From: Candidatus Omnitrophota bacterium | GTDB lineage: Bacteria; Omnitrophota; Omnitrophia; Omnitrophales; Aquincolibacteriaceae | Assembly (NCBI GenBank): GCA_023247055.1 | Contig: JAHFHF010000005.1 | Coordinates: forward strand, 18,985-82,984 | Length of the DNA stretch: 64,000 bases | Direction of reading: 5' to 3' | Shown here: piece by piece, positions 1 to 31,597 of the stretch | How the letters are laid out: each line of letters opens with the position of its first letter | How positions within the stretch are numbered: the stretch's first letter is position 1 | Translations under genes and position numbers: made by a program | Notes under the pieces: model-generated | What the model was told of the DNA's origin: nothing | The model's input: only the letters and a program-made list of their open reading frames with translations | Databases searched by the model: none

Positions 1-3000
1 TATGTGCTGCTGGCGTTGCAACAGCGTTTTCCCGATCAATTCCCTCAGGCCGCAGCCGAAAAGCTGAGCGGATTCTTTCAGAGCTATCAACAGCAAACCC
101 CCAGCCGTCCTGCGAAAAAGGGAGACATCATCGCCTTCGGTGCTTTTGAAAGTCCGCAGCAATTTCAAGATTATATCGATTTCAAAGATGAACTTTTGTT
201 TGCGGTCGTCCCGGCGCCGGGAAATTGGCGGTTTCAGGATCACGCCTATGAATTTATGGCCCAGCGCAACAAGGGCCGGATGGAGATGACCTTCTATCGC
301 GGAGATGGAACAATCGATGAAAATAGAACGGCAGATGACAAACTGCTCGAGAGCGGACTGCTGACAAAAGGAAATATTATTTTTGTGCTGCGCGGAACCC
401 CAAATGGGATTTCAATGCCGCCTATTTTTCCTCGAGTCGCCGGCCGGATGGGACACACCCACCCTCCGGACACTGTTATTCCAGGGGAAAGCGAAAATGA
501 TTCGCTGACCTATCTTGCGAATCATCAGGAACTAGGTATTACCAGGCGTAACTTGCTTTCTGCCCGCTCCGAAGTGCGGCACACGCCGGATGAAATAGGC
601 GCAAAGATGGCTGAAGCGAGGCGATTGATTGCGGGCAATCAAATTCAGCAGGCAGAAGATACTTTGCTGGAGCTTTTTGAAAGTTCGCGCCAGGAGTGGG
701 ATGCCCGGCAGACGTATAAGGATGAAACTGCAAAAACGGAAGTTAAGGGAGATGTAGGAGATTTGCTTCATTTGGCGGAGTTAGCGCTTGCCGCGGCCGT
801 GGCATTGGAGGATTCTGAAACGCCAAAAGCCAAGAAACGTGCGTGGAACCCTTTTCATTCTTTCGAATATTTTTATTTAATAGCACGCTCTCCGGAAGTT
901 GTGCCCTTTTTGCGAGAAAATCATGCTGCTTTCCAACAGATGGGGCTTTATGCGGGGTCGTATATTTCGAAAATGAATGAGTTGCAAAATCAGGAAACGC
1001 AATCCCGGCAATATGGGGGGGAGCCGCCGGAAAAATTATTGCAAAATTCTAATCTTGTAAGCCCCCATTTTTTTGCATTAGCTAAAAATGTTTCAAGGCG
1101 ATTGCACGGCGAATTGACATTTGAAAACGGAGAGAACCCCTTTAGGGGTTTGCTGCGCTTAAATGGAGAGTTCAGCGGCACCACTGCCCATTTTCCGGAC
1201 CATCAAGCGCTCGAGTTTTTGATTTCCCATGCTTCCATCCTGCTGGAACTGAGTGCTCCTGCGCTTGCGGGCTATTTGCAGTATTTGGCGCATTATATAG
1301 CCAAGACTATGCAGACAGACGGGTATTACGAAACCGAAATCAATCGAGGAAATGAAGACCTGCCGCGGATTCAGGTTTACAGGAATCCTTTAGCCAGCTT
1401 AAGTATTCTTCAAGGGCTGTTTTCTATCCAAAATGATTCCCAGGATCAGAAAACAAACAGGGCGATAAACTATCTTCGCATCATGTCGCTATACGTCTCG
1501 TTGGACCAGCCGGATTCAATCCTGCAAGTTCTCGATGAAGTTCTTCCTGAATTATCTAAAGTGGAGAAGAAGGATCGGGATGTATTTGCATACACCCTTC
1601 TTAGAATTTACAGATCGAATTTGACGGAAAACCAAAAAGCAGAAGCCGTCCGCCGGGCGGGCTCGTCTTTTCACGTCAAAAAGATAATCGGGGATATCAG
1701 CAATGAACAGGCGCTTGAAATTTTAAACCGTTTAGCACGCCTGGATGCCCAGTCCGCATTGCCGCGCATGATTCCTGAAACCACGCCCGAATTTTACAGC
1801 CGTCATGCGGAATTATTGACGGCTTTTGAAGGCCTGCCGGCAGCGGAGCAGGATGCCCTCGCGAATTTTTTATACGAAGAATTTGCCGACCGAAATTTAA
1901 CAGAAGCCTCTCTCAAAGCGCTGCTTAGCCCCCAGGCGGTTTCTTTTTATGCCAGGCATGGCCGGCAATCCGAACTTCTGGTTTCTTTTATCGCGCGTTT
2001 CCCCGGCCAGTTAGAGGCCATTACCCGGGAAGGCAGTGAGTTTGTGGCTTTAATGCTGCAGTTAATCCAGTTAGATCCTAAATTTTCAAAAGGATATATT
2101 AGTTTTCTGCATTATTCGGAACAAAGCGAATATCTTCAAACAACAGAGGTTTTGGAAAGATGGATTCAGCTTGTTAAAAAAGAGCCCAAAGGGGCAGAGC
2201 AGGTCTTTGCCCTTTTGCGGAAACGGCCGGAACTGGCGCCTGCCATTTTATTTGGGGGCATTTCGGAAAGTTTGATGCAAATGAAGCCGGATGTCCGGGC
2301 AAGTTATGTGGATGCCGCGGGCAACAGATCGGCGGAAACTTCCGCAGAATGGGTGGCCCCTGCCATTGCCGAAATCGCTGCGGTATTAAAAGGCCGCGCG
2401 GAGGCGGAAGCATTCAACAAGAGGTTTACACAAGACGAGGCCTTTCGGACATTAACGCTGGATGAAGCAATGCGCGCGCCGCTCATTGAAAATTTGGCGC
2501 GCCAGCCAGTCGCGACCCAAGCATCCTATCTTAGAAATGTCACGCCAGACATTTTACAGGATCCTGCCATGGCCGATTTTCAGGTGCGTCTCGACGCCAT
2601 TGAAGACGCGGAGTTGAAAGGGGAAATCCTGGAAGCCATCTCGAAAAACAAAGTTTTCAGAGACTATCTGATGCAGGGGGGCCTGGGTTTTCTGATAGAG
2701 TTGATTCAGAGCAGCCCCGACGCGAACGAAGGTCTAAATCGGGCTCAAGGCTATGTCCTCATTCTGCGCTACGATTCTTCCGGTGCTCTTACCGTCGCCG
2801 ATTATCAAAGTATTCAAGGAAAATACGGTGGGCTCCTGACGGATGCGGAGGTACCCTTATCCTTTTCTGCCGAAATCCTAAGGCTTGCAAGGAACCAGCC
2901 TGCCTTAATAGGTCACATCGATTTGACCCTGCTGAGAGAACTTCACAATCAATTGGGCGAACTTTTCGATGATTTTATTAACATTGCCTGTGAGGATCCG

Positions 3001-6000
3001 CCGGTTTTAACGGAGATGCATTTTCATAGCATGCTTCGCAGTCTTCGTGCAGATTCAAGCATCGCGGGGGATAGATGGCTTGCCGCCGCAAAACCCAATT
3101 ACCGGAACCGGCACCGTTTTGCCTTACAGCTTCTAGAGCCGCCTAAAAACCGCTTTCCGACAAGCGCGCAGATGGCGGATTTGCTCCTTGCCCTCCGCCG
3201 CAGTGACAATGCCGGCGGGGTCGATTTTTTTGAGCGTCACCAAGCTGCTGTCAAACAAATTCACCCGCAGATTTTACAAAGATTAGGCCGCATGCAGCAG
3301 CCCCCCCAAGAAATTTTTGATGCGGCTGCGCTTGAGACGCTGGCTCAATTTTCTAATCCGGCCGCAGCTCAACTTTTACTGGAAGAAATAAATTATTTAG
3401 CCTACGCATTAAAGCAAGGGAAGATCGATGCTTCAACTGCCGCTGCCATGAGAAATAAAATAACAGCATTGATTCAGAACCCGGCTGTTTTGAATGCCGA
3501 CGAGAAAAAAATAGATCTGATCAAGCAATGGCTGCAACAAGCCCGTGAGCACGCGCAAGTGCACGCTATGGGACTGCACTTTATTTTCAATCTTGAATTC
3601 GATGCGGATGTTATGAAGGAACTGCTTAAAGGGTGGCGAGGCGAAAAATTCTACCTCGATTTGTTTGACGAGACGGTTTTGACGATGCTGCAGAATGCGA
3701 AAACAGAATTTGGAAGCGGTTTAACCGATTCGATTTTAGCGGCTGCGAGTGGTGAGCGCGACGTTACTTACCTTAAAACGGCGGATTATTACCGAAATAT
3801 CCGGCAGAAAATTCTGTTTTTGTTCGCAGCAGACGGGTTTAAACAATTTCCTGCCAGGGCCACCAACGATGCTGCCTTGAAATTAATACGTATCGATCCG
3901 GAGACCTTGAAAGCTTCGCTGCAGAATTTAAAGGCGTGGCTTGGAAACGAAGTGATCGATGCTCAATTGGCGCAGGGACAATTTCAGGTTTTAAATCAGT
4001 GGGTTGCTTTTGAAAGTCAAATGACCCAAGCGGGGCATGGAACTGATCTAAAAGATCATTTGACCCGCGCTCCGCCAGAACTCGATCGTTCGGAATATTT
4101 TACGGTTCTTAGCGGCTTGCATCTGGAACTTGTAGGGATGTTGATCAATCTCGACAAAGACAAGGCGCCGGAGGATAAAAAAATCGAGAGAAATTGGCAA
4201 GAGAATCTTGCGGCTTTGAAGACCCTCGATGAACTCTACCGTGGATTACTTGCTTTAAAACAAGGCCAGACAGCCGTGGATCATGCAATTGCTCATCAAT
4301 TCGTGCAGCGTCTGTTGAAAACCGGAGAAAGGGGGCTGGTGAAGGAAGCCCAGTTATTTGTCCGGGGGTTGAAAGCGGGCGTTGTTCCCGTGGCGCTTGT
4401 CAGCGCTTTCCTTGCCCGGGCTGCGGCTACGGGAAATAATGAATTTACCAAGCGAGTCCATATTTTGAAAGTTTTGGGTGAACTGCTTCAAATCCACTCA
4501 AGTATTACGAAAGTAAAAGCCTTGGAAGGCGTATCTGCGAAAATTGTTCAAATTGTTAATTTGTTTTTAAAAGCAGAAAAAGCTGAAATCGGGCAAGTCC
4601 GCCGTTTGCATCAAAAATTGCTTGCGCGGCTTTTAAGCGCGGTGACTGGAGAGAATAAAATCTCTGAACCGGCTGCATCCGCGCTTTCAAAAGACCTTTC
4701 TTTGCTGCCTAAAATCCTGACAATTATTACCCTTTACTATTCGCTTGAAAAGCATGGGCAGGGGCGCATCCAAGACCTGAAGGATCACCTGCAGACCCAG
4801 CTCAGGGAATTTATCTTGACGGGAGACCGGGCGCGCATCCGCAAAGCCATTCTCAAAACGGAAGCCAATCAGATTATTATGAAAAAATTAACCGAAAGCG
4901 GCTACGATTTACGTCTTTTAGAAGAAGGTTTTGAAATCGAGGCTGTGGCCGCATCCTGGGACGAAAAAGAAAAAGAAGACGAAGTGAAGGCGACAATCCG
5001 GCAGTTGTCGCACGATATTATCGAAATTGCGGCCCGGCTGGGTTTCCAACAGCAGGTCGAAGGGGCTGCTGCTGTCAGCCAGTTTGATCATGCGTCCGAT
5101 GCGCAGGACTTTGTAACGGCTATGGCACAGCAGTTTCCCAACAATCCGGCGCTGGTTCAGGCCGATATCGTTGTGGCGCAGATGCGCGAGGTCGAAGAAC
5201 GGGCTCAAAAAGAGATCCGCGCCAAACGCAGTGAAAAAATCCGCGTCGTGGTGCGCAAAGATTTTCTGGATGAGGCTTCTGCCGGCGGGTATGACTATCT
5301 TGGCAGTACCGTGCCCGGCTGTTTTAGCCCGAATGGGGCGCATCAGGAAAGGCCGCCCCAGACTTCGGCCGATGCCGGCGGTACTTTCGCCATTGCTTAT
5401 GACGAAGCCGGAAGAATGATTGCCAATGTCGACCTAGCCTTTACGGATAAAGGCGTAGTGGTCTATACCGCTTACAGCAGCCGCGCCGATCTTAATTTGG
5501 ATCCGGTTTGGTTTAAAGTTTGGCAAGTTTTATCGAAACTGGCTCCGGCCGTTATCCTGGATCCCGCGCATCGATCTGCAGGCGTCAAGGAAGCTTCCAA
5601 ACAAAACCAGCCTGAAAAAAATGTAACGGCTGAAAAATTAGGATCCCAGGGATCAATGTATTTCGATTTCGGCCGGTCCGACGCCGCCGGAAAACTCTCT
5701 TACGCTTTTTCGGAAGCTATCGTTCTCAGAAGCGCGCAATTTCCTGAGGTTCAATCGCCCTTTTTGGATTCCAAGGAAGCTTTACCCGCGTCAACAGCAT
5801 CCGCCGCACAAACAGGCAAAAAAGAGGATGCTCGTGAGACAGTTCAACCCGTAGAGAAGTTAGATCCTAAAAAGTTAAACGACGAAGAACAAAGAAAAGT
5901 TAAAAAAGAACTCTTCGATTTGGGTTTAAAGGACATTGATTTTGCCCCGATTTTAAGAAACTTGAATGAGATTATTTTAACCCCGGGATTTGACCTTGCC

Positions 6001-9000
6001 AGATTGCTTTCGGAACTCAAGACACGGCCTGCAAGCCGGGGTGCACAGCCCGGCATTCCCACGCAAAATGATTTAGAGGCTTTGAAGCGAAAAATTCTTG
6101 AATTGCAAGCCGAACACCGCATCCCTAGAGGATTTGAGGAATTTGCCGAGATCGTCCAACGCGAAGCGCCGAGACTCAGGAGTTTACGCGGCAATGCAAG
6201 GCAAGAGGAATTATTGAGAATTCTTCAAAATACTCTTTCTGAAACAAGAGGCGTTGATTTGTCGCGCCGTCCCAGCCGGGAAGTGGGAGCCATTCCATCG
6301 AGATTTATAGAAAATGCCCAATTGCAAATCGAGTCCCAGGCGGCGGAAGCGCTCACGAGCAGGCTGGATGAAGCCCGAGGTTTATTGGGAGCAGCTTCAC
6401 CCCAAGAAGAAGAACAAGATTTGATCGAGATTCTTTTTGGCGAGTATATCCCTCAAGCGTCTGAGGTCGTTCTATCGGGGGAATTAATCATGGAGAACGG
6501 ACAAGCCCGGCTTGAAATAAAACAGCCGGGTGAAACCTTGGCAATTCTTGATCAGAACCGGGTACCCCAGGGGCAGCGGACTCTGCAGTTTGAGATTTAT
6601 GTGCGACAGGGAAATCTCCATATGGAAATCGTGGACCTCGTTGCTTCAGACTCATCCGAAGCCTTGCGATTTTATGCCAACTTTGCGCAATGGGCCCAAT
6701 TTGTTTCCAACCACTTGCAGGTGCCGCTGGTCATTGAGCATGAAACCGCTATTTTTTCAGGGCGGGCTTCCCGTTTCGGATTTCACCAAATCAAACAAGC
6801 GCAGAGCCTCATTAAAGATAATTGGATTAAAAAAATTCAGCCCTTATTGGCGGAACTCGGAATCCCCGGAGAAAATTTTGCAACCCACGGCGTCAATCTT
6901 GATAACTTTCGATACTACGAAGGAATCATTACGCCCCGGCCGCTTACAGGCCGCTCCGAAGTGCGGACGGCGCCAGAGCATGCCGCTCGAGCTCTGCTTC
7001 ATCAAACGAAAATCGAAACGCGTCAAAGGCATGAATCAAGCCGGCGGGCTTTTTTGACCGCTTTAGGCGCGGCAGCCGCCGGAGTTTTTATAGCCGGCGA
7101 TCATTTTTCCCCCAAAGAAAAGATGAATCCGTGGCGTATTGCTGTGGAGCCTGAAATTTCCATAGATCCGAATGTGCTCGTGGAGAATCAGCAAGCTGCG
7201 GCCGTTCAAAAAATACAGCAGTGGCGAAATGACCTTCAGCGGGAATTAAAAGAGGTGAACACAGATCCTGAAACGAAAGAAATTGCCGGTGAATTGGCCA
7301 GGATTCTTGGGCAAACGGCTGTCGTTTATCGAGACCAGGATTATCCGGAGTCTGAGCCGACGCGCATCATTGTCGATCACCGGGCCATGCAGGGCAGAGC
7401 GCAATTTTATATCAGCGTGATTCATGAGGCCTTGCATCATTACTACAATAGAAACCAAATGCTGTTGCCTGAGACGGAAATGGTGAGTGGATTTCAAACC
7501 GCGCACGATCTTGAATTTTATCTTTGGCCCGGGGAAGAGGGCTGGGTGATCAAACAAACTAATGTTTTATCCGCCGCGCTTGGGATATTCCCGGAGTTTT
7601 TAAAAGCGTCCAATGCGGATGAAATTCTTTATTTTAACGGAGACTGGCTGACTTTGCCTGCGATTGCCGAGCGCATTCAAGGCGGCCATGAAGTCGCTGA
7701 ACGTGCGGCATTGCTTGTCAAATTTCTGCCTTTAATAGCACAGGGCCAGGAACTTTTCTTTTTGAACCAAGCATCGCAGAAAAACCGGCAGGCAGCCGAG
7801 CAGCTTCTTGTGGACATCTTGCCAAAAAATAGTGCGTTAGATCCAATCATACGGGCGGCATTAGAACCCGCCTTGAAATTAAACGCATGGCTGAAACAAA
7901 ACGGAGCTTTGTCCTACCCCCGCCGTTCGGAAATGCGGGGAGCGGCGCCAGAAGATGAATCTATAGCAGAGACAGCGGCGGCTTCTGTTTTTCAGGATTT
8001 CATTAGCGGCAGATCCGGCGGAAAAATAAGCGGCCGCGACCGCCAGCGGGATTTACGGCTATTGAGACTTGTCGGGACAAGAGTGCTCGCAGCGATGCCC
8101 AGCAGTGTGGATTCGAAAGATAAAAGCGTTTTACTTAATAATTTTTTGTCGCGCATTGCCATGGATATGGTGTCTCCGGAAGCGATACGCCGTTATCTCG
8201 GCGAGTTAAGTTATGTGCTGGCTCAGGCAGAGACGCGTCTGGGGTCTGGAGATGCCGGAAAGAAAGTCATCAATGAAATCATGAAGGCCCAGGGAAGGCT
8301 TCTCCCGTTTATTCAAAATGAAAATTCCGACGGCCAGCGATTTTATACACCCGAACCGTATCGAGGCATTGAAAATTTTCGCCGGTTTTTTGATTTTGTT
8401 TTCGAGGGATGGGATAAAACCGGCACTGGGCGTAAAGGTTATGCGGCCAACGGCAGTGTCCTGATTCACTTCGCCTTGGAAACAGCCCGCGAAAAGGGTT
8501 TTTCGACACGGCAGCTTGAGACCAGAGGATGGCGTCAGCTGCTTCCATTTCTGAGGCTTAACCAAATTAATTTTGGCGGGCAAGTTTATCGTCTTGGCAA
8601 AGCCGAAATTTTAAACGGAGCGGTTACCACGGAATTTGCGGAAGGAAGAAATTTTATTTTTAGGGCCGACCTTGAAGACGCCGCAGGCGTAGCCCAAAAA
8701 CAAATTTTAGTCAAATTGGGCGTAAAGAATCCAGAATTTGATGAGGTCGTCACTGAAATGGCGCGTACGATGGGGCTAAAAACCTATGCCGTTGAGCGAT
8801 TTGATGCGGGGGAGGAAGCCGATAAAGACGGATTCCATCCGATCGCGCTTCAATTGATCGAGTTTGTGCCGTCGCAAATTGTTTTTGCTCAAGGGCAGGA
8901 TGGGGATGGAAGAAAAATTTCGTATCCAAATTTATCACCGCTTAAAACCTTGGAGGCTGGCGCCAAGACACAAGCGCTTGAAGAACTCGGAGAGCATCTG

Positions 9001-12000
9001 GCGCTGGATTATCTTTTTGGCGGACGTGATTCAATGATGAAACATTTTCTCCTTACGCGGGAGGGCCGGTTCATTAAAATTGACAACGAATTTTTGTTCG
9101 AATACAGTGCCACTCCGCAATACCCGAGATTGGCGGGAACCTTGGAAGCGCAAAGTGATTTTTGGGATTTTTTGGCCGCGCTGAAAGAAGGGCCGCCGAT
9201 GGAAGGCTGGGATAGCGAGGCTGCAATCAGACACGGTTTTGACCGGGTTCTGACAAAGATTGCTTTTAACGACGGCGGCGCCAAAGAACGGCTTTTTAAA
9301 ATTATAGAGACACGCAGAACGTCAGCGCAGCAGGATAGTCTTAGTCTGGATGCCATTAAACGAGGCATTGAGCAGCGTGCGGGCCACAGTTACGAATTTT
9401 TGAAGTCTATTGCAAAATCTGCCCGCTCCGAAATGCGGAGCATACCGCGCATACCCATACCGGACGCCGTCCGCGGGGAGACGTCAGACTCATCAACCTC
9501 TCCCCGCGGACGGCGTCCCGTTACGCGTCGGACTTTTCTGGGGCTTGGGATGTGGGGTGGGGTTTTACTTACCAGCTTTTCAGTGGCTAAATACTTCGGT
9601 TCGGAAACAGAACGGCAGAAAAAAATTCGTGAGTCCCGCCAACGGCGTGAAAAACAGGAAAAAATTCCTTCCAAAACTCCGTGGGACAAATTCCCGTTGG
9701 ACGATGTGAAACGTTCAGACACGGAGAAAATCCGTCAGTCGCTACAGGTTACCCTCGATTGGCTTATCCAGACGGGCTACGGCGAGGCGGATATTCTTGA
9801 CGAATACGCCGGTTACCTAGCCCAAGCCAGGCCGGGTGAGGGCCTGTATCATTCGCTTATGTCAAAAAGCTTTCACCTCAAAAAAGGCATTGAAATTGAA
9901 TTTAATGAGCGGCACCTCCTGGAACTGATCCGGCAGGTTAAAAATTCCGAATCCCTGGATCTTTTTGTCGTGACGCTGGCTGCAATGATAATGCGGGAAT
10001 CCCTCGGATTGCAAATTATGATGCATGCTCAAAAACCACTGGAAGAAATCGCGAAGGGAACCGAAAAACTGGAACTGGCGCGAAGAAAAAGAATGCCGGC
10101 AGATGAAATGAATATGTACAGTCAGCCTTTGCGCGAATTTCTTAGCCAAAATGAAAATGAAATCGACCGGCTGCTGGCTCTTTCCTTCGCTTTTGAATAT
10201 CTAGAAGCGGAAGCGGAATGGAATTTTTACGCAGCGGCCTCAGCCCGGAATGATTTTTCCGTGCAGGGCGCCAACGAAGCGCTGAACACAGTTAACGCCC
10301 GGGCTTTGGCGCTGGCAGATCGATTGAGAGTAAGTGCTGATTCGGCATCCCTGTTGATGGAAACACAGGGAGACGATTTCCTTATTTTTCGAAGCCAGCT
10401 GGCTGGAATGACGGTTGAAAAGTATCAACTTCTTAAACAAGGGGAGCTGGCGCGTAAGCGAAAAGAGTTACCCGAAGCGAATTTTTTATTAGTGAATTAC
10501 GGAACTTTTATGGAAGTAAACCGGTTTCAGCCTGCCGAAGAACCAGGCAAACAGGTAGGCCTTAGCCCAGCCATCATAGGAAGTATGGAGCGCAGGGAGT
10601 GGCCAGATTTTGACGGGTTCACGCCCTATGCTAAACGATTGTGGCCTCAGTTCCATACAGCCGTAGCTCAATTGCGCAAGGACCTTCCGTTCGCGCATGC
10701 GCTTTTCGAAGCGCAAAAAAAGGACTTGCTCCGCAGAATGAAGCGCTTGGGTAGCGACTTGAAGCCGCTGCTAGATCGTAAGTCGCGGCCTGAAGCCCCT
10801 CTTTTCGACGGCGGGGCCAAGGCCGGCAATGCTGCCTCCGTCCGTTCTGAGATGCAATTTGTTACGCCAGACTCATCAACCTCTCCCCCCGGACGGCGTC
10901 CCGTTACAACAGATGAAATCTTGAAAACCATTATTTCCAAAGCCCGCTCTGAGATCCGGAAAACGCTGATTTTTGCGGCGGTTGTTTCAGGGGGCGCCTT
11001 GCTCGCGGCTGTGGGCTATCTGAAATGGCCGAGCATTCAACGCTGGTTTGAAAGCCGCAAGAGTCCGGAAGAACCGTCAAGCGGCCGGCGCGATTTCCTG
11101 AAGCAGGCTTTAGCGGCCGCCAGTGCTGCGGCATTAAAACCATCACGAGGGCTGTTAGGAGTTTTGAGCCCGGCGTTAAAGCCGGAGTTTACCATCAAGA
11201 CTGCCATGGGGCAGGTCGCACAAGAGGAAGCGGTGTCATGGATAAAAATAGTGACAGGCATCGAGACAACGCCTTCCGTTTTACCGCCTATCTTGTCACC
11301 TAATAAATCGGTTGTTGAATTTGTGAAAGCCATTGAAGTAGAGCCTATTTCATCCTGGGAAAACCTTGTACCGCCGGGTTATGAGCATTTGCTCGGCCCA
11401 TCGCTTGGAGGTATGTCCGATCTGCGTACGGTTATGATCAACGAATTCATCGGCCGTTTGGCCGAAAAAAAATTGTCTAATGGCCGTTCCCCGCTGGAAA
11501 ACTTTGGGATTTACGAGCCCCTTGGAAGTGGGCGGCGCACTTACACCGTTGCAGGAGAAACTTATACTGACTATGGGCTAACTTTCGAATTGCGTGATAT
11601 TGCAGATTTAATTAAGCAGCATTTGCCCGACGGATTTGAAGATGCGGCATGGACCGATGCGGCGCTGGATCGCGCTGTCAGTCATTTTGCACAGGCGCTG
11701 ACAACCAATCCCGCATTGCAAAATCAAGTTCGAAAATTTCGCCAGGTTAAAACTCAAGAGCGAAGCCGAAAACTTCAGCAGCGCCGTGATGGTGAAGAAA
11801 ATCTGGTGATGCTCAAAAAACAACTTGCCGTCGCAGAGCGCTCACGCCGCGATTTTGCGAATGGCGTTGGTTTCGACGGTATGCGTGATTTCCGTACCGA
11901 CATAGATGAACTGGATGACCGAATCAAAAAGTTGACAGATCAAATCCGGTGGGAAGAGACCTATGTTCTGACGCTCAAAACCGCTCTTTCTGCCCGCTCC

Positions 12001-15000
12001 GAGATGCGGGGAACGGCGGCTCAACAGCCGACTTTGGCTTCTATCTTTTTGATTCTTGGGAGGGTGAGCCGGATGGCGTCTTCGAGCGTGGTGACTTTGT
12101 TTTCAATGGCGCCAAGTCTGTCTTTGACCTCTGTCATATCGAGACAAAGTGAAGCCACTTTTTCACTGATCAAAGATTGGTTCGATTCAAATCTTTCGAT
12201 CAGAACGCCTACTTCCGTTGCAGAGAAATTTTTATCTTTCATGAAGCGTACTTTACTGGATTTGAGGAGGGGAGTCAATATAAATTTTATAAATAATTTA
12301 TTTAATAAAAAACCAAATTCTCTATCTGCGACAGGACGTTGGAATATGCCAGAGCGAGGATTTGCCCGCTCTGAAATGCGGACGCCCCGCCCATCGCCGG
12401 AATGGGAACGGCTCGAGACTTTGCTGAGGAAACAGCCCACGATTGATATTGCTTATACGAACGACTTCAAGCAATTACCGGCAAGTCAACGCGCCGAACT
12501 TTTCAGAAAAGTACTTTACAATGAATATAACCTCTCCACGCAAGGTTCCCATGCCGCGATATTGAATATGCCGATTCCTTCAGCCTGGGTTGTTCAGGTA
12601 CGCAGTTTGATCTATGGTATGCAAGATGCCGAATCTGTATCGGTTTTTCTCAGAGCGCTGCAAGATCCTTCTCTTGATCTCTCGGGTTTTTTTGACGCGG
12701 CCGGACTTCAGTTAAGCGATTTGCTTCGTGAAAAGCCCGAAATCATTTTGCAGTCTTTGAGCGAGCAGGCCCTTAGCCTTTCGGGGCTTGTGGATTTAGT
12801 GATTCAACAGCAGGCGAGTGGGCTTGTCGTTTGGCTTAGGGATCTGTTGATGCATCCTGAAGTCCCGCGAGCGCAAAAGTTTGCGGCAATGAGACGGATC
12901 TATGAAAAAAGCATCGTGCTGCTCAATGAATCACGACCATTAACGCCTGGGCTTGAGACCTTGCTGCCCGGGGCAATGATTTCTTGGGAGCTTTCGCAGT
13001 CAGACTCTGAACCGTCTGTGACAACACAGGATTTAAAGGAGCGCGGGCGCAAGATACGGCTTGAAAGACTCATGGCGCTGAACGACATTTTTCAATTTGT
13101 GGCCTCTTTTATTCGGCAGAATGTTGCAGTGCGGTATAGCGATGTTGAGAATGCGCTGCGGACGCATCCCGAGATCTCTTTGAAGTTTATAAATTTACCA
13201 CTTGCCGTCCGCGCGAAGATCCTTTCAAAAGTGGCGCTTTTTTTCCACAACAAGTATCTGGCGAAGGAACTATTTGAAGATGCGCGCCGCCGTTATTCCC
13301 TTGAGGATTATGAGAGAATGGCTAAGAATATCGAGGCTCTTTCGAGGGACTTAAAACAGGCTTATCGCGACGGAGCGGCGGGGGATGTGAAGTTGCTGCG
13401 CAGCCAGATTCGATATGTTCGCAAATCTTTGAAATGGCTTCACGAAAAAAGAGTAGCGGCCTTTTATCAAGAATTGACGGGGCGGAAAGAAATACCGGAA
13501 ATTATTTATCTTGAACTCGGAGACGCTTCCTTGATTGTCCGCACGGATTTTAAATCGCTGCAGAAGTTAGTCGACTCCCCGCAGATTGCAAAGCCCGTAG
13601 AGCAGTCAGTTTTTTCTCAGTTTTTATCTCAATTCAGCGAAGACCGTCCGGTGCCCGATAAAAATAAGCTGCGTGAGTTGCTTGCAGAGTTTCCGCGGTA
13701 TATCGTTGAAAATTTCCAGAATGAAATGATCGCTTATTTAGCAGGGGGTACAGAACTGCGTTACCGTAATTTTGATGATCTGATTCTGTTTTATCGTGAT
13801 AATTATGCTGATTGGCTCAAAAAATATTTAGAGCGAACCCTGTATCAAGATGCAGCCACGCGAACTCAGAAACAGGAGTTGGCGGCGTTGATCTCTGAAA
13901 TTTGGCAAGGACCTGAATGGAATACTGTTTATCAACAATTGAAGAATGCCAAGGCATTATTGGATCAGCTGGTCGATGCTAAAGCAACCTTGCTTTTTCA
14001 TCAGAGTGAAAACGGGGCTGCATTCGAGAAGACAACGGCTAGGCGTAAGGCTTATCTTGAAGCGGGCACTTCTATCATGGGAATCTTGCAATTTGTTCCG
14101 CTGAGCCGCTTAGCGCCGCTGCAAGACTTGCTGGAAGAATATGAAAAACAAATCCAAACTCAAAATATTTCTCCGAAGCAGCGCCTGCGTGACCGGGAGC
14201 AGCCGTCCATGGTGAAAGCAGGAAAGGAGCGGTCGTTTCAAACCAGCGGATTTTATTCGGACGGGATTATTTATACGCCCCTTGAGTCTGAATCGCTCGT
14301 TATAGACCATGAGACGCAGCATCTGATTCATGGCCTTTATACTTCCGACCACGTGCGAGGCATTTTGCCTTCACAAGGTGAATTTAATGAGCAGCTTTAT
14401 GAGGCCTTGAAGCATACCAAGGCAGCCCGCTCCGAAATGCGGACGGCCAGCCGTGATCAAGATATCAAAGGCGAAGACCTAACCGTAAAAGGGACTTCCG
14501 CCGAAAATTTTGTGATGGATGGAGAAAATTCATCAATTGAAAGATTGCGAAATTTGCTTTGGTCGGAAAATGATCCGCGAAGACGGCTGGGTCAATACCC
14601 GGTCATCATTCAGGATTACGATGCAAACCGGCCAGGTTCCGGAAAAGTGATTTTACGATCTGACGATGACGATGTTGCCACGATGCCTTTTGTTCCCGAT
14701 GACCCCTTTTGGGATGAAATCAATGCGCAACTAAACGGTGGTATTTCACCAGACCATTTGCGGCGCATGGAAGATAAGGCAGGTAAACCCATAGACAAGT
14801 TTTTAAGATCCGTTAAATTTTTTGTCCTTCCTGTGTTCATTTTAATTTTTATAGACGGTGTTTTGGGCGGGCCTGTGATTGGCCGTGCTCCATGGATCAT
14901 GGCCAATTTTGAAAGGGCAATGGTTATGTTAATCCTATCAACTGCCGTTACAAGTCTCGGCGCGACTGGGATTTTTTATGCTAAAAAGTGGTTTTTGGGC

Positions 15001-18000
15001 CGTCGCACAAATCGAAAAAAGAGCGCCGAAAAAATTATAGTAAGGAAAATTGTTTCTAGTAGTAATGATGTTTCCGAAGGCGTCGGGTCTGCAAAACCGG
15101 CAGCCCGCTCCGAAATGCGCCTACCAGCGCGAGCCGAAGTGCGGACAGGCAGTATGGCGGAAAGAATCGCTAAAGAAAGGCTTCACCGCCAAGATGTTCT
15201 GGAGCAATTCCGGGAAATGCGTCGCGATCTTTCAACGCGTACAACCATTCGAAAGCAGGTCGGACCAGATATCTGGGAGGATCGGAAGATGACCGAGGCC
15301 GATCGGGAGAAAGAAGCGCGGCGTCTTGACAGGCAAGTCCAATATGCCCAGCAGCGTTTTCTTTTGGATTCGGATGCCCTGATCGCAAAGCAGCTTGCTG
15401 TGAAGGATTCATTCGCGGCTTTGAAAGGGCATCAATCAGGCGCGTTTGGGGATAAAGCCCGTTTCCGCCATGATTTTGAGTTCGCTGTTTCTAATCGTCT
15501 TGGCTCCCTGTTTAATGAGACGCCTCCGAGCGATGCCGACCTGCTTTTTGTCCAAGAAGCCCTGAAGCAAATCCCGGAAGAAATCTCACGCCGCCCGCGA
15601 TGGATTGCGGATGATCAGGGGAATGTTTATTCCTACATTTCGGGAGGCGGGGAGCGATCCTACTATGCAAATGAGCAGACCGGCGAGGGGGTTTATGTTT
15701 ATGGGTACCAACCGCATTATCCCAATGTTGCTCTGAAACACCTGCAACTCTATATCGCCATCATCAACCGGCTGCGCGCTGCTCCTGAATTCCAGAACTC
15801 GAAATTTGCCATTCCCGAGTATGAAGTCGTGGTCCTGCATCAGCCCGGATTCGAACAAAATTTTTATGGGCTTAAAACAAGGCATATTCCGGGGACGCTC
15901 GCAGGCGCAGATACGACCAGATATAGAGCCAAGGTGGATGCTTTTGTGACGCTGGCCAAACGATTGCTGCATGACATGCTCTATGCGGGCTATTTAGTGG
16001 ACGACGGCGAAAATGCTTTGGGCAAGCCTGATACGCATTTTAATAATTTCATCGAGTCTGGGGGCACTTTTTACGGCGTCGATCTGATCACGATGAGCGA
16101 TATCATCAAAGGCGCGGACAGTCTTGCTCGAGACCTCGGCATCCAAAGCCTGCCGGAAAAGGAAGATTTGCCTGCTTACTTGCAATCCCCAACTGCCGAA
16201 AAAATTAAGGAATTGTTTTTTCAGGCCGTGAAGGACTACCAGAACATCCCTCGCTCCGATGCCGGAACGGAAACCGGGCTTTCTATTTCAGACCGGTTGC
16301 TCATTGCGAGGGAAAAGCTGGCGGTTTTTACGCAGGAGCTCGTCAAAAAATGGCTTGAAGGCGCCTATGATGAGCCGGGAGTCAAGCCGGTCGAACTGGG
16401 CAGTCTTGACAAGCCAGAGGTTGTGCAATTAAAAAGGCTTATTGACGGAAATCGTATGGGAGACGCTACGAGTTACGTTGCAGACAAGGAACACCCGCTT
16501 TTTCCCTATCTTCTCTACCTTGTTCAAAGCGATAGCCTGCCTGTTCCGGCAGGCTTTGCCGGCGAAGCGCCCAGCATGAAAGCGACGCTTTTGGAACAGC
16601 TTCAAAACGGCGCCTTGACCAAAGGAAATTTGAATCTTGGAGACTATTTCCGGGATTATCGCGACTGGGACCAATATGGTTTTATCCGCAAAGAAACCGT
16701 GGTGGCCATTGAGCTGAGAAATGAATTTCTAAAGGGCCTTGTACGGGAAAGGCTATTTTCAGGGTTAGTGCCGGCGGCTTTGGATTCCTTGGACAAGTTG
16801 AGCGCGCAATCCGGTGTTGAGATTCCCTCTGAAATCCGCGAAGAATTTACAACGGCATTGTGGAAATATGTGGACCTGGAAATGCAGCAGCAATGGTGGA
16901 GTGTCAGTTCAGAGCGCTTCGGTCCGCTGGACAGTGTGATCATTGAGAAAATCCGGGCCAGCAGCCGTTCCGAGATACGGATCGGCGCAGCCCTTCAACG
17001 GGCGCTGGCAAAAAAGCGCAGCCCTGAAAAAAGAGCTGAATATCTTAGAGATCTGGCTAACGGGCTTGACGATTTTTCAAAATTTTTGCTCATGGACGTG
17101 ACCTATGGGGAAATTCAAAGAACGAGCCATCCCCCCGGCATTGCCAGAATAAAAGAGAATGTGGAGTCTTACGCGCGGGCCCGCGTGGAAATGTTGCTGC
17201 GTTTTGATGAGGAAACGCGCCGGCGTATTGTCGGGGCCAGCGCGACCGAAGACAATGGGCCTAATAATGAGTACGCGCTGAGATCGTTTTTTAAAGCGGT
17301 CGAGGTCTTCGAAAAGTTACTGGGCGCGGACTATGATCCGGCCGGCTTGCGGGAATATCTTGTGAAAATTTTGACCTACTATTTTACGGGCGCGGAATTC
17401 GAGAAGCGATGGAGCAACGATGCGCAGGATTTGCAGGCCATTGTGGAGGGCGAAGCCTTTGACGCAGGCTTTAATGAGATCACTTATGAAAAGATTTCTA
17501 CGGGCACTTTTTCTTATACCCACAAGCCAACCGATGAATGGCTTGGATACGACAGCCGGGTAGTTTTAAAATATACGGACGAAGTCTCGCAAAGAAACGA
17601 ATTTTACAGGTTGACCGGGTTTTATCCGGAAAACGTCCACGACAAACAAGACCTTTTTGCCCCGCCCTATTTTTATTATTCGCAGTTGATCAAAGCCCAT
17701 GTGAATCCCCGGGATCAGGATTTGACAGTTGTTTACGGGGACCTGCGCTACAACAGTAATATCGCGATCCTTCTGATGCAAACCAATGCCGCAAAAGCTT
17801 ATTTGCCTGCCCGCAATAAAGGAACACTTGAGGAAGCACAGGCGGCTCTGGAAAGCTGGGATTTTGAAGAAATTCGCACAAGGGCGGAAGGGCTTGCCCG
17901 GCCTGTGAATGCGCCATTGAGCCTGGGAGGATTCACACAACAGGTCGCCTATGGGAAAAATTTTGCTAAAGCGGTAGTCAATGAACTCAAAGGTCTTGGC

Positions 18001-21000
18001 CTAAAAAAAGAAGATGTGCATGTTTCTCGAGACGAAAAGGGACGCCTCGTTTTTAAATTTCCGTGGGGTTATCCAGGGACGCAGGAGAAAAAAATTCGCA
18101 CGATTATTTTTTCAGATACCGATTTAATCGATGAGGGGGAAAGAAAAAGTTTCATTCAAACGCTCGCCGGCGAAACCATCCATCTTTATTATGAACACCC
18201 GGGCCAAATTAATTTGAGTGGGGAAAGCCTTGAAGCCAAAAATGAATACCCCGCGCTTCTAGCGGACATGGCCAATCTGTTGCCGCCAGACGGGCGGATC
18301 GTGACCGGCCAGTATGATTCCTGGGGCGGGCGGATTGAAGACCGAGGCGGAAATGACGAGAGTGCCGGACGAAACGTTTTGGCCCAGAGTTTTGTTCCGG
18401 AAGATCTTTCGCGGAGTGCACAATGGTGGAGCCGTGGGATTCCGGAAGCACATCGCTTGGGTTTTGGAGGAAACACCCGGATTTTTAAAAGAAGCGGAGG
18501 AGCAGTGGTCTCTCCAGAAACAGCCAGGCCTTCTCTCGAGCAAATACTGCCGCATCGTGAGCAGCCCCTTCGTTTTGCAGGTGATACGAGGATCGACTTC
18601 AAGGCTGTCCCCGACACGAATTATTTTCTCGCCTACGTAAAACAGCTTACCGAGGGAGCAAAGTATTTAAAAGCTTTTGTGGATGCGGTCAATTACCCCG
18701 GAGAAGTTTTGAATGCCGATGCGAACGGAAGAATTGCCAATGATCCGGATCAATTAATTCAAGAAGCTTTTGACCATATCGTCCGTATACGTCAGGGTGA
18801 GGAACAGGCGAATCGCGGCAGAAAAGAATTGGGTTTTGACTCGAAGAATGATTTTAATGATCTGAGCAGGCCGGAGAACCTAGTGGCCATGATGTCCTAC
18901 CTGGCGTTTGGCGAAGTCCTGCCCTGGGACAATGCGGATGACACCTTGAAAGGGCGCTTGCAAAAAGCGCAAAGTCTTGCGCGGTTGTTTGATGAGGCTT
19001 TGCCCCCAACGGAAGATGTGGAAAATGCGGCTCTTCAAACCATCGCCTATAAGGATTCCAAAAGGGCCCGTGGAATTCTTTTGGAAACAGTGGCGGTTTT
19101 TGCGTTAATTGAGGAAATGATCTTAGACTTTGAAAGCAAAGGGGAAGGGACGGATAAAAGTCTGACTTTCGATCAATTTATTCAGGCAGTCCAGAACGAA
19201 CTCAAAGAGATAAAAGAAACTTGGGGCAATAAGCCGAGAGCTCTTGCCAGAACAGAGGATAAAAAGGGAAGAAAGCGGCTGCGCAGAACACAACAGGAGG
19301 AAAGTCTTGTTCATATTCTCATTGAAGACGACCTCAAGGGAATCAAGCAGCTTGCAGAACGCGCCTTGAACATGGCTTTCGGCTACCGGCCTCAAGACCA
19401 AGGCACGGTGGTGACGCTGCCCCGCTCCGAAGTGCGGAGCATTGTGAACGAAGGGCTTCCCGAGACTTATCCTGGGCGAGATATATTCAGCGCTAAAAAT
19501 ATTCTTGAGGGAACGCCGCTGTGGGAGAAATTGAAAGAGTTTAATCATGGAAAATATCCGGCAGTGATTAATGTTTCCGCACAAAGTACTAAAGCCGCGA
19601 AGGAGTCTTTTGACCGGCAAGTTCAGCATCTCGATAAGAAAGAGATCGTTTATGTCTACTTTCAGATCGAAAATAAAGGCCGCATTACTCATCTTGTCAA
19701 TGTGGATGAAGTTCAGGCGATTGATTCGGAAAACCCCGCGCCGCTTGGACGGCACCCTTTTGTTCTGGCATGGATTGAAGATTCTATAGCTCAAAATTTG
19801 CATTTTACCAGAGTCTCTTTGGGCAAGAACGACTCCGGTCAAGCGAATGATCCGCTGCGCGGGCAGGGCCTCATGAAGCCCGTTTTTGGGCGAATGGAGT
19901 CACTCATAAAATCTCGTTTTCAGGGCTGGACAATCTCTTCCCTGGCGCTGGATGAAAGCGGAAGTGTTCAAAAATTCCTTTCCCATTTTTCAGGAGTGCG
20001 GCACATCACCACGGCACAGGAGGTTCTTCTTGACGATCGCGGTTATGAAAAAATAAGTGAGGGTGATCCGCAGCGATGGGGAAAATTTGTTATGGGCCGT
20101 ATCGCGGCTGGAAGAGATCGCTTGGATCAACCCGCGGCGTATGGTGAAGATAACAAACAGTTAGAAAATTTTTTAAATGAAAGAATTTCAGAAATTCAAG
20201 CTCGCCTTGCTCATTTAAGAGAGGATGTTCAGCACAGGCTTGCCGTGTTGCAAGCGAATTGGGATCAGGAAAGAAGCGATGCTCCACGAAAGGCCAGCCG
20301 TGTTATTTCCGCTATGATAGATCTGATGCGTGGGGATCCTGCCCGTGTGCTTATGTTGGAAGATATTGAGAGGGATCACCAAAGAAAAGGGCTTGATTAT
20401 GGGCAAGAGCAGACGCGTCATCTGGAGAAGGCTCTTCTAGGCCGTATTGAATATAAACAAAAAATCATCAAGAACTCAATTGTATCGCCAGTCATAGTTC
20501 TGGAAAGACAGCTTCACTTTTTTGAAGCAGCACTTCGGTCGCTGCAAGGCGGTGAGGACGCCGCAGGAGCAAGCTTTAAAGCAGAACAAAATGCCGAAAG
20601 ACTCTTTGACAAACTTGCTGAGACTGGCTATGTCGGGGCATGGAATTTTGAACTGCGGGCCAAGGATAAAACGGGCCGTGAGGTTGAAAGATGGAGTGAG
20701 GCGGAAACCCTCGTATTGGAGGTGCGGCTTAAAACGGATGTCGTGGGGCAAATTGCTCTTGATAGGACGCAGCTTCAATTAGCGGGAGACATCTATAAGG
20801 TTTTAGGTGAGAAATTAGCAAGCTTAAAACCGGCTGATTTAACAGGGGCTCAAGAAAGTTTCCGCGCATTTTTTTTAAAAGATCTTGCTCAGTTAAGCCA
20901 GTCGGAGTCTGCTGATATCACAAGAAATACTCGAGATCGTGAGGAGATAGCTTTTGATATGGCCAGTCGTGTTTTGGTTGGCTTTTCTAAAAAAATAGTT

Positions 21001-24409: not shown

Positions 24410-24571
24410 ATAGGGTCACTCCTTATGCAAATATTCTTTTAAAATTGTATCATGCGAGCGCATTCTGGAGGATGGCTTTTTCGACGAGGGCCGGGCCCTT
24501 TTTCGGGCCCGGCCCTATCGTTTTTCCGTTTCTTGCGGCATTTCCAGCCCTCTGATATCATACCTCCCGCT

Positions 24572-28075: not shown

Positions 28076-28081
28076 TTTTTC

Positions 28082-28109
28082 GTAGTGGCAATTCATGAAT
28101 TGCCACTAC
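28082..28109 (+). terminator. Perfect palindrome GTAGTGGCAATTC-ATG-AATTGCCACTAC (12-bp stem) just after the large enzyme gene and before the mscS ribosome-binding site.
   Basis: The inverted repeat is read directly from the sequence. No U-tract follows it, so it could be a terminator-like or processing hairpin. A related half-sequence (GTAGTGGCAAT) recurs at 39118. Confidence 0.4.
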
Positions 28110-28129
28110 AAATAGAAACAGGAGGTTTT

Positions 28130-31578: not shown

Positions 31579-31597
31579 ACTGCAGATTTTGTAAACA

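Follow-up and report, generated by a model that had tools for sequence, protein, structure and literature searches.

Template-switch (quasipalindrome) mutations are known in bacteria and in coding DNA, and they place a perfect reverse-complement copy of adjacent sequence, with sharp edges, into a genome in one step (PMC8794818, PMC8604942, PMC7202029). Perfect hairpin stems, including those in coding DNA, can be made by template switching in a single event (PMC8794818, PMC8604942). The palindrome described here resembles such footprints. Unlike the typical cases, it preserves the frame of a 23.7-kb open reading frame (ORF), and part of the presumed template region is also duplicated 1.4 kb away.

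Rickettsia palindromic elements (RPEs) and intragenic MITEs offer another parallel, in that in-frame palindromic DNA is found in protein-coding genes and is tolerated as extra peptide loops (PMC10969869). RPEs measure ~100-150 bp, number in the tens, are spread over unrelated genes and specify a conserved peptide, whereas the element here is 57-63 nt and has two copies, in one gene and at the same type of motif. REP elements are extragenic and numerous, and are linked to a RAYT gene. The palindrome shares with them a size class (about 35-65 nt) and a G+C-rich hairpin, but none of these REP features is found within the window, i.e. the whole 64-kb stretch of DNA that was analysed.

The protein that carries the palindrome also has described counterparts. 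Omnitrophota 'multi-enzyme' giant proteins, as portrayed in two preprints (West-Roberts et al. 2023 and a 2026 complete-genome preprint), likewise combine many unrelated enzyme-like modules with membrane segments over several thousand residues; they exceed 30 kaa, vs 3-8 kaa for the giant proteins considered here. In one of these preprints the cleavage points are described as unknown. A text search of both preprints ('motif', 'cleavage', 'polyprotein') found neither the junction motif nor in-frame palindromes. MARTX toxins are modular effector arrays that are released by autoprocessing. Here, neither a cysteine protease domain nor RTX repeats came to light; the modules, unlike those of MARTX, carry internal Tat-like signals, and cleavage at RSExR is putative.

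The giant reading frame and its junction motifs

The host gene and the junction motifs nearest the palindrome are as follows.

1..23757, + strand: giant mosaic ORF, with no stop in frame 1 from base 1, no Pfam domain, and segments homologous to giant proteins P0001-P0015
9421..9438, + strand: junction motif A-RSEMR (GCC CGC TCC GAA ATG CGG), which closes the preceding module; the same module closes with ARSELR in P0002
10843..10857, + strand: degenerate junction motif RSEMQ (CGT TCT GAG ATG CAA), 6 nt before repeat copy 2
10945..10959, + strand: junction motif RSEIR, with a hydrophobic segment directly after it; together with the motif at 10843 it forms a 'double junction' around repeat copy 2

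The ORF begins outside the window, beyond its 5' end, and its length therefore exceeds 7,918 codons. HMMER gives sixteen matches to it, mostly giant proteins; a word-based protein search with residues ~3100-3700 gives no match, nor do exact-protein look-ups of two genes next to the ORF, so that the source genome is absent from the collections searched. Self-BLASTP of the giant protein shows no internal paralogy between modules. By homology the ORF is a member of a giant mosaic protein family, and the only named genome match is an Omnitrophota MAG (L003).

Unrelated modules in this family are divided by a short junction motif, whose copies were counted for each protein. The present ORF has an RSE[MVI]R-type motif in 15 copies, including the variants RSEMQ and RAEVR (0.03 expected from composition); the relatives have RSELR, RSEAR, RSESR or SGFGA. 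Synonymous sites are also uniform far above the codon-usage prediction, the last Arg being CGG in 12 of the 14 motifs of this ORF (p = 2e-6). The order of modules varies between relatives exactly at junction motifs. A literature search for 'RSEMR' produced unrelated acronyms only.

A reading in which the ATG, GTG or ATH of RSE[MVI]R serves as an internal start codon for separate genes was rejected. In L001, Val is encoded by GTC or GTT and the Arg codon is not constant; in other lineages this position is occupied by Ala, Ser or Leu, or the motif is SGFGA.

At the other end of these proteins, C-terminal tails finish in A(A) in 11/12 full-length family members. Relatives carry a TraB/Tiki/RRSP-like N-terminal domain; the window cuts the present ORF before its own N-terminus. 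The junction motifs and internal Tat-like signals, together with this N-terminal domain of the relatives, suggest a processed polyprotein in which RSExR would be the putative site of cleavage.

The palindrome and its folding

The features of the palindrome, read from the 5' side, are given below.

9441..9461, + strand: three CATACC copies (9441-9446, 9450-9455, 9456-9461), a slippage-like direct repeat read from the sequence, just upstream of the left arm; they encode IPRIPIP
9462..9480, + strand: left arm of the perfect inverted repeat; encodes P-DAVRGE
9481..9499, + strand: loop or spacer ACGTCAGACTCATCAACCT; encodes TSDSST
9500..9518, + strand: right arm; encodes SPRGRRP, within the Arg-rich run that leads up to the twin arginine

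Read in reverse complement, the arm GGACGCCGTCCGCGGGGAG (9462-9480) matches CTCCCCGCGGACGGCGTCC (9500-9518) at every base, which gives a perfect 19-bp inverted repeat with a 19-nt spacer, and the giant ORF remains open across it. An initial reading of the sequence alone had proposed just such a perfect in-frame repeat at 9462-9518, and both the exact complementarity and the open frame bear it out. According to a repeat finder, longer arms of 26 nt pair at 92% (9459-9484 and 9496-9521, with 11 nt between), and 5/7 flanking positions pair beyond the perfect 19 bp. The length is 57 nt (perfect) or 63 nt (extended), both multiples of 3, and excision of the palindrome would leave a plausible short linker. 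Matches to the arm at <=3 mismatches number 3, vs 0.04 expected.

Folding sets the site apart from its surroundings. The RNA free energy, which had been proposed as a check on the repeat, is -56.2 kcal/mol for 9440-9540, vs -30.0 +/- 3.3 in dinucleotide shuffles (z -7.9, 0/200), and the corresponding DNA folds have z -8.6 (+ strand) and -9.8 (- strand). This is the strongest hairpin of the 23.7-kb ORF, the sole strong local inverted repeat in 1-24500 and the most stable 70-nt window across nine family genes. The hairpin begins 24 nt downstream of the junction motif RSEMR (9424-9438).

The linker and the module that follows

The palindrome occupies a non-conserved linker, which extends from RSEMR to the conserved start of the next module.

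9523..9597, + strand: twin-arginine-like signal or membrane anchor TRRTFLGLGMWGGVLLTSFSVAKYF, which opens the next module; the ORF has three RRxF[LI] sites, of which this is one
9598..10842, + strand: body of the conserved module bracketed by both repeat copies, with 38-43% identity to P0001 residues 5108-5551 and L003 2068-3351

The module start reads TRRTFLGLG from 9523, and P0001, P0010, P0013, P0014, P0015 and L003 share at this position a conserved [ST]RR with a hydrophobic stretch after it. The ARSEMR at 9421 and the twin-arginine-like motif, to which the sequence-only reading had drawn attention on the two sides of the palindrome, are thus both real and recurrent. At the level of pattern, TRRTFLGLGMWGGVLLTSFSVA-K agrees with the Tat consensus S/T-R-R-x-F-L-K, the full pattern adding a hydrophobic region and a small-x-small site. 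The motif lies ~3,170 residues into the ORF, not at the N-terminus where a Tat signal peptide is located. It could act as a signal only following cleavage at the junction, itself putative, and would otherwise be a membrane anchor. The body of the module has no sequence relative in Pfam or PDB.

The HMMER alignment to P0001 begins at query residue 567, i.e. nucleotide 9499. RGRRP of the right arm and the VT that follows align with an Arg-rich R-x-[VL]-[ST] before the RR in P0001 and L003. The remaining linker has no similarity to the P0001 and L003 linkers; it is hypervariable and probably disordered.

The second repeat copy and the antisense reading frames

Loop and right arm recur, without the left arm, at the next junction, and the repeat accounts for two antisense reading frames.

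9481..9524, + strand: 44-nt direct repeat, copy 1, loop plus right arm; encodes T[SP]DSSTSP[RP]GRRPVT
10864..10907, + strand: 44-nt direct repeat, copy 2 ('half copy'), with 42/44 bases identical to 9481-9524 (95%) and in the same codon phase
9390..9722, - strand: mechanical antisense ORF of 110 aa that contains EVDES, wholly within the conserved giant ORF; not considered a gene
10668..10940, - strand: mechanical antisense ORF of 90 aa that contains EVDES; not considered a gene

A partial copy consisting of loop and right arm had been noted at 10868-10907, after a degenerate RSEM; it is in fact slightly longer (10864-10907), and the degenerate motif is RSEMQ at 10843-10857. Copy 2 is a paralogue that lacks the left arm, and its homology to copy 1 begins exactly at 9481, the base after that arm. 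It has no hairpin (z +1.0). The two copies are 1,383 nt, or 461 codons, apart. Copy 2 has GTTAC on either side, and the full palindrome has no flanking duplication.

No further copies of the palindrome or the 44-nt repeat are found in the remaining 40 kb of the 64-kb window, so that the window has two, both in the same gene; the intergenic palindromes elsewhere in the window are unrelated to 9462-9518. Dispersed copies may still occur in the source genome beyond these 64 kb. An exact-pattern scan with the 31-nt loop plus right arm matched nothing in JGI metagenomes or in reference genomes totalling 596 Gb. Five viral matches to the 19-nt arm represent two unrelated GC-rich sequences with ~21 nt in common and were treated as chance.

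The mirror-image antisense ORFs that had been pointed out at 9390..9722 and 10668..10940 do exist. Both carry EVDES because the 44 nt common to the two sites, in reverse complement, encode this peptide, and the ORFs are mechanical by-products of the repeat.

Known signals and elements

Several known signals and elements were compared with the palindrome. Rfam gives no match at gathering score in the whole window, and in 9300-11100 there is one sub-threshold chance match at E <= 1. An intrinsic terminator would require a U-tract, but the stem is followed by CGTTACGCGTCGGAC; a terminator scan detects, at 9511-9530, just a minor stem of 6 bp, with a scan total no greater than in shuffles. The upstream sequence GCGCATACCCATACC contains no X XXY YYZ slippery heptamer of the kind associated with a frameshift stimulator, and the only other + strand ORF is a 99-aa mechanical one. 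In comparison with integron attC sites (RYYYAAC ... GTTRRRY), GTTACGC deviates from GTTRRRY and the stem is perfect, without extrahelical bases.

Pfam matches reveal no transposase, integrase, recombinase or RAYT in the 64-kb window. REP elements of the RAYT type are extragenic, high in copy number and associated with a Y1 transposase; judged within the window only, the palindrome is intragenic and has two copies. An in-frame selfish element should have a frame-preserving palindromic structure, which is present, and many dispersed copies, which are absent from the window and from public collections. The footprint of a template switch, a perfect neighbouring reverse-complement copy with abrupt edges, is seen at 19/19 bases.

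Relatives and the junctions of the family

No relative more than 45% identical was found in any of the collections searched, and the closest orthologues are 40-43% identical. The comparison for the ancestral linker therefore rests on the paralogous copy. A profile search with a two-sequence alignment yielded one related genome locus (L003) and no metagenome locus; an alignment of eight sequences was too divergent for use.

The palindrome is absent from orthologous junctions. The junction in L001 is unstructured (z -0.08). That of L003 has an unrelated palindrome on the opposite, upstream side of the motif, present there in three in-frame copies that adjoin junction motifs; a full and a shortened palindrome likewise enclose the homologous module of L003. 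L005 has several in-frame palindromes, including another perfect 19-bp stem (627-645 / 660-678) within the N-terminal domain. The element type found at 199-270 of L005 recurs in an intergenic region of L007 (785-873), which shows that REP-like elements do land in frame in this gene family.

Internal DNA repeats cluster at junctions throughout the family. In ten family genes, 16 of 18 ends of near-identical internal repeats lie <=120 nt from a junction motif (3.7 expected), and all the repeats are in frame. Spacers between duplicated junction motifs fold at z <= -2.7 in 7 cases out of 15. Raw counts of hairpins near junctions are also high (16/35 vs 7.9 expected); the mean effect is gone after G+C correction, and a tail enrichment remains. 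Thus 12/101 junction loci are below the 5th percentile of random positions (p = 0.005) and 7/101 below the 1st percentile (p = 8e-5), while 89/101 (~88%) are unremarkable at the 5% level. The remaining 14 junctions of the present ORF have nothing comparable to the palindrome.

Origin of the palindrome

Perhaps the palindrome is best viewed, with confidence and doubt about evenly balanced, as a lineage-specific in-frame inverted duplication that a template switch during replication probably produced; the linker in which it lies, within a giant mosaic gene, is permissive and prone to repeats. On this view it is not a conserved RNA or recombination signal. Its neutrality and the order of events are presumed, as follows. 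The right arm and the loop would be native, arginine-rich sequence located ahead of the twin arginine, and the left arm (9462..9480) would be the derived reverse-complement copy. A nascent strand may have copied its neighbour in reverse complement and thereby placed a 19-nt inverted copy of the right arm just upstream, creating the perfect stem in one event. In addition, 44 nt of the linker would have been copied to or from the next junction, as one case of the repeat turnover near junctions that several family genes display. The threefold CATACC in the same linker, a slippage-type direct repeat, may be a sign of local replication errors.

The added codons (about PDAVRGE) would be tolerated since only the junction motif and the [ST]RR plus hydrophobic segment are constrained. 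It should be pointed out that a pure 19-nt insertion shifts the frame, and a replacement or a compensating change, e.g. CATACC expansion, must be assumed. No dedicated function of the palindrome is inferred. As a side effect, the stable mRNA or single-stranded DNA hairpin may locally slow ribosomes or polymerases. The modest enrichment of strong hairpins at junctions (those below the 1st percentile) weighs against a neutral scar, and the bracketing of the L003 module by a full and a shortened palindrome could point to a function or a targeted element instead of neutral scars.

Alternative explanations

The main rival is a small selfish palindromic element, REP- or MITE-like and comparable to those of Rickettsia, that inserted in a tolerant linker, with 10864-10907 as a truncated second insertion. 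The sequence-only reading had raised an in-frame palindromic insert; the finding of extra in-frame DNA in a non-conserved linker agrees with it, but mobility does not, given the absence of dispersed copies from the window and public collections. A length that is a multiple of 3, the plausible linker that remains on removal, the GTTAC flanks on both sides of the half copy, the in-frame palindromes of L003 and L005, the L005 type being intergenic in L007, and the documented in-frame elements of Rickettsia (PMC10969869) are all in line with a selfish origin. However, the two copies are confined to the same gene and the same frame, each just past a junction motif, with none among the ordinary genes and spacers that make up the remaining 40 kb and no exact copy in the genome and metagenome collections. 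The full palindrome has no target duplication, a 'half palindrome' is an odd product of transposition, and the window has no transposase or RAYT; such an element is thus considered unlikely. An assembly or amplification artefact, a fold-back chimera, is hardly credible: assembly errors are conceivable for an apparently uncultured organism, but the frame is open across the palindrome, the conserved [ST]RR plus hydrophobic motif and 440 aa of homologous module continue in the same frame, and fold-back chimeras usually involve hundreds of bases, not a 19-nt arm with a unique loop.

A recombination site or a strong RNA structure had also been put forward from the sequence, and as conserved features neither finds support: the L001 junction is unstructured, the L003 palindrome is unrelated, junctions have no general excess of structure after correction for G+C, and no Rfam family, terminator or slippery site is present. 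A functional mRNA hairpin, which might pause ribosomes for folding or cleavage of modules or for handling of the Tat-like signal, or might be an RNase target that splits the transcript, would fit the exceptional stability, the start 24 nt past the junction motif and the enrichment in the tail at family junctions (12/101 and 7/101). It is quite unlikely, however, when ~88% of junctions are ordinary and mean G+C-corrected stability near them is not raised, when the L003 palindrome is upstream of the motif, when the other 14 junctions of the ORF lack a comparable structure, and when there is no slippery heptamer or U-tract. A DNA-level element, in which junction-proximal repeats, folded as single strands, are functional attC-like cassette boundaries for the in-frame gain, loss and exchange of whole enzyme or signal modules, would if true account for two genomes, with palindromes unrelated in sequence, that both flank the same module with one full and one partial palindrome. 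Module order changes between relatives exactly at junction motifs; the window and L003 bracket the same homologous module with same-frame direct repeats; recombination between the copies in the window (1,383 nt, 461 codons) would excise a module in frame; internal DNA repeats lie almost exclusively near junctions; and the junction motif has a CGG uniformity far above the codon-usage prediction (12/14, p = 2e-6). Set against this, there is no recombinase within the window, the palindromes differ wholly between genomes and lie on opposite sides of the motif, most junctions have no repeat or hairpin, attC-type core sites are absent and the stem has no extrahelical bases. Short homologous repeats also recombine passively, which makes a dedicated site unnecessary, and a cassette boundary is judged very unlikely.

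Implications

If the palindrome is the scar of a template switch, it probably shows, in a clean natural case, how a single error of replication can produce a perfect 19-bp stem and seven new codons without harm. It is chiefly useful as a pointer to a module boundary of a giant mosaic family, and the surrounding protein is the more interesting object. The boundaries in this family are marked by a short lineage-specific motif, have signal-like segments after them and are hotspots for in-frame DNA repeats. They also suggest sites at which modules recombine. Taken with the TraB/Tiki/RRSP-like N-terminal domain, the junction motif provides a testable proposal for where, and by what, these giant proteins might be cut.

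A perfect palindrome in a giant open reading frame

Frame 1 of the window stays open over bases 1–23757, and the reading frame is therefore longer than 7,918 codons, since the open frame reaches the start of the window, which cuts it. Neither a Pfam domain nor internal paralogy was found in this ORF. Residues about 2600–3800, used as query in an exhaustive HMMER search, give 16 relatives, the majority being giant (2.8–7.4 kaa). P0001–P0015, with loci L001 and L003–L010, make up a family of giant mosaic proteins. Its members have in common a signal peptide and an N-terminal domain that spans some 550 aa. Of 12 full-length proteins, 11 have a C-terminal region whose tail ends A(A), and so does the window ORF (...AARQAAAKAA). 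Between the shared termini lie variable, unrelated modules (kinase-like, methyltransferase, Metallophos, AAA, LRR, HEAT, NUDIX, DnaJ and others). Very long Omnitrophota proteins of a 'multi-enzyme' class are described in a 2026 preprint.

The ORF that follows (24452–28075; 1,207 aa) has no Pfam match in the library copy used. Its 200-residue N-terminal segment shows 54% identity over 68 aligned residues to a gene annotated PEPCK_PPi_lobe_2 (PPi-PEPCK) in the related locus L007, which sits near the L007 giant gene; this suggests that the neighbourhood of the giant gene is conserved. Elsewhere the window contains chromosomal genes of an ordinary kind, and neither a transposase nor an integrase is found in it.

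The perfect 19-bp inverted repeat with a 19-nt loop, first noticed in a sequence-only reading, is exactly as that reading described it:

9462–9480, + strand, left arm GGACGCCGTCCGCGGGGAG, exact reverse complement of the right arm
9500–9518, + strand, right arm CTCCCCGCGGACGGCGTCC, 19-nt spacer between the arms

With a repeat finder each arm reaches 26 nt, 92% complementary (9459–9484 / 9496–9521). The stem edges are sharp: outside the perfect arms only 5 of 7 flanking bases pair. Three CATACC repeats lie directly 5′ of the left arm. The same reading had proposed a free-energy calculation, and the palindrome is far beyond chance: the RNA fold of 9440–9540 is −56.2 kcal/mol vs −30.0 ± 3.3 in dinucleotide shuffles (z −7.9), and the DNA fold gives z −8.6 to −9.8 on the two strands. 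The arm pattern, with up to three mismatches, occurs 3 times vs 0.04 expected. The palindrome is the sole strong local inverted repeat within 1–24500, and it ranks top in stability among 70-nt windows of nine related giant genes.

The downstream half copy that had been claimed is real. Positions 10864–10907 are identical to 9481–9524 at 42 of 44 positions and share the codon phase. The half copy is flanked by GTTAC; it lacks both the left arm and any structure (fold z +1.0). Its homology starts at 9481, immediately beyond the perfect left arm. The two antisense ORFs reported to share EVDES both exist mechanically, and the shared peptide is merely the reverse complement of the common 44 nt. A search for the further copies expected of a mobile element found none beyond the half copy, either in the window or in public collections.

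The junction motif and the linker

The ARSEMR noted just upstream of the palindrome proves to be one of 15 such motifs, which stand between unrelated modules of the ORF; 13 of the 15 are exact RSE[MVI]R (0.03 expected from composition). Relatives likewise carry a motif of this type where modules meet, and its sequence is lineage-specific.

Junction motifs in the window ORF and in related giant proteins

565, 6952, 7924, 9424, 10843 (RSEMQ), 10945, 11995, 12367, 14428, 15106, 15130 (RAEVR), 16966, 19423, 21412, 22807; + strand; RSE[MVI]R type, 15 nt each, n = 15
RSEVR or RSEMR: P0001, P0004, P0011
RSELR: P0002, P0008, P0014, P0015
RSEAR: P0007
RSESR: P0003
SGFGA: P0010, P0013

In the window, the module that precedes the palindrome has the ending ...HSYEFLKSIAKSARSEMR, against ...HSFEMLRGLARTQDARSELR in P0002, and the next module differs in P0002; thus the motif marks boundaries where module order differs. 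Among family members, module order varies exactly at junction motifs. Text searches of the 2023 and 2026 giant-gene preprints found no junction motif.

Judged from its sequences, the junction motif is a protein-level signal. Its codons vary freely in the related locus L001 (Val GTC/GTT; Arg AGG/CGC/CGT/CGG). Use of the M/V/I codon as an internal start was also considered; this codon variation and the existence of Ala, Ser and Leu variants rule it out. In the window ORF the motif DNA reads CGY TCY GAR RTG CGG, with synonymous uniformity far above the prediction from ORF codon usage (last Arg CGG 12/14, p = 2e-6; Ser TCY 13/14; Val GTG 6/6). This suggests that motif DNA has been homogenised between junctions of this ORF. 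The DNA pattern has one exact match outside the giant ORF, at 57506–57520 (CGTTCCGAAGTGCGG), with about 0.8 expected by chance in the window. Two junctions are double: 15106–15144 (RSEMR-LPA-RAEVR, copies 8 codons apart) and 10843–10959 (RSEMQ...RSEIR, 34 codons apart, enclosing the half copy).

The module after the palindrome (about 9523–10842) shows 38–43% identity to modules of P0001 and L003, and has more distant kin in P0008, P0010, P0011 and P0013–P0015. L003, from a Candidatus Omnitrophota MAG contig, is the single reference-genome locus with this module. In six relatives the module opens with the junction motif of the lineage; 11–23 linker residues without conserved sequence follow, and then [ST]RR plus a hydrophobic segment (SRRIFFSAAGV, TRRTLLTIAGV, SRRTILIGAVV, SRRAIIKYGLGL; TRRTFLGLGMWGG in the window). 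The twin-arginine-like motif pointed out after the palindrome is therefore a conserved feature. Three such segments lie in the ORF, each shortly after a junction motif:

7042–7056, RRxF[LI] plus hydrophobic stretch
9526–9540, RRxF[LI] plus hydrophobic stretch
11086–11100, RRxF[LI] plus hydrophobic stretch

In the window this variable linker is taken up by the palindrome and reads RSEMR-SIPRIPIP-DAVRGE-TSDSST-SPRGRRP-VT-RRTFL. Likeness to orthologues is limited to its Arg-rich end, in the right arm (R-x-[VL]-[ST]-R-R), and the HMMER alignment with P0001 begins at nt 9499. The right arm is part of a weakly conserved basic stretch, whereas nothing anywhere corresponds to the left arm.

Repeats and palindromes in related giant genes

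Junction linkers are repeat-prone in this family. Near-identical internal DNA repeats of at least 28 nt were compared in ten genes: of their 18 ends, 16 are no more than 120 nt from a junction motif (3.7 expected). The repeats all keep the same frame, and they occur in the window ORF, L003, L006 and L010. Spacers between duplicated motifs are often palindromic (z, from mononucleotide shuffles: L003 −5.9, L006 −6.6, L005 −4.7, L010 −4.0, L004 −3.4). Two loci have several in-frame palindromes:

L003, 644–728, 1922–2006 and 3353–3427, three copies, 25-nt arms, 3-nt loop, peptide SPSLPLPRKTGEGRVGEG
L005 (P0011 gene), 199–270, 619–690 and 1434–1505, inside the conserved N-terminal domain

In L003 each unit consists of the palindrome, about 20 nt and the motif, one copy being shorter by 15 nt. 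The module that the two repeat copies bracket in the window has its homologue in L003 between copies 2 and 3. Among the L005 palindromes is another perfect 19-bp stem (627–645 / 660–678), and palindromes are thus not confined to junctions. The CCCTCTCCC...GGGAGAGGG type of L005 is found again between genes of L007 (785–873); therefore REP-like elements land in frame in this family.

The window has other palindromes, unrelated to this finding, that are intergenic or at gene ends (31597–31632, 28079–28112, 44227–44264, 47713–47757, 52079–52124): one perfect 18+18-nt without spacer, one 17+17-nt, and three hairpins with a common GCCGAAGCAATC. These are possibly terminators or REP-like repeats.

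Origin of the palindrome

The evidence says that the hairpin is not a conserved signal. The orthologous junction of L001 has no structure (z −0.08), and the L003 palindrome (CTCCCCCTCCCTACCCCTCCCCCGT / ACGGGGGAGGGCAGGGTGGGGGAAG) is unrelated and stands on the other, upstream side of the motif. The remaining junctions of the window ORF have nothing comparable, and the palindrome shows no Rfam family, terminator tail or slippery site. Raw counts over nine genes point to hairpin enrichment near junctions (16 of 35 vs 7.9 expected); after G+C correction, mean stability near these junctions is not raised. Relative to random positions, 12 of 101 junction loci fall below the 5th percentile (p = 0.005) and 7 below the 1st (p = 8e-5), four of these seven being duplicated junctions. 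A functional mRNA hairpin is improbable, and a recombination or cassette-boundary element more improbable still; both readings draw on this modest enrichment in the tail and on the bracketing pattern. The sequence-only interpretation is partly supported: extra palindromic DNA in frame stands, while a conserved RNA or recombination signal is not supported, given the unstructured L001 junction and the unrelated L003 palindrome.

The main alternative is a selfish palindromic element of the RPE/REP type (PMC10969869). A length of 57/63 nt, GTTAC on either side of the half copy and the presence of in-frame palindromes in relatives all agree with it, but copy number and distribution do not, and it appears rather unlikely. 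An artefact is also unlikely, as frame and homology run on across the site.

An incidental in-frame inverted duplication, produced by a local copying error, is the best explanation and has roughly an even chance of being correct. It is favoured because of the sharp edges, the boundary at 9481, the left arm without counterpart, the CATACC repeats and the lack of further copies. Replication template switching makes a perfect stem in one event, coding DNA included (PMC8794818, PMC8604942). Positions 9462–9480 would be a reverse-complement copy of 9500–9518, written into a permissive linker by such a switch, and the 44-nt duplicate at 10864 may have come from the repeat turnover near junctions that the family shows. 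We infer this mechanism and the order of events by comparison with a paralogous copy rather than a close relative.

The giant protein as a putative polyprotein

The N-terminal domain of the relatives is TraB/Tiki/RRSP-like; this superfamily comprises, among others, the proteases Tiki and RRSP, and the invariant QDAH and GGxH motifs of the domain fit the GxxH signatures of the superfamily. The N-terminal fold, the lineage-specific motifs, module shuffling at these motifs and the signal-like segments that follow them fit a putative polyprotein that would be cut at junction motifs. Cleavage there would leave the Tat-like segments N-terminal; the internal RRxF[LI] segments lie deep inside the ORF and would need such cleavage before they could serve in Tat export. 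The cleavage points of giant Omnitrophota proteins are stated to be unknown in the 2023 preprint, and the junction architecture around the palindrome deserves study of its own.
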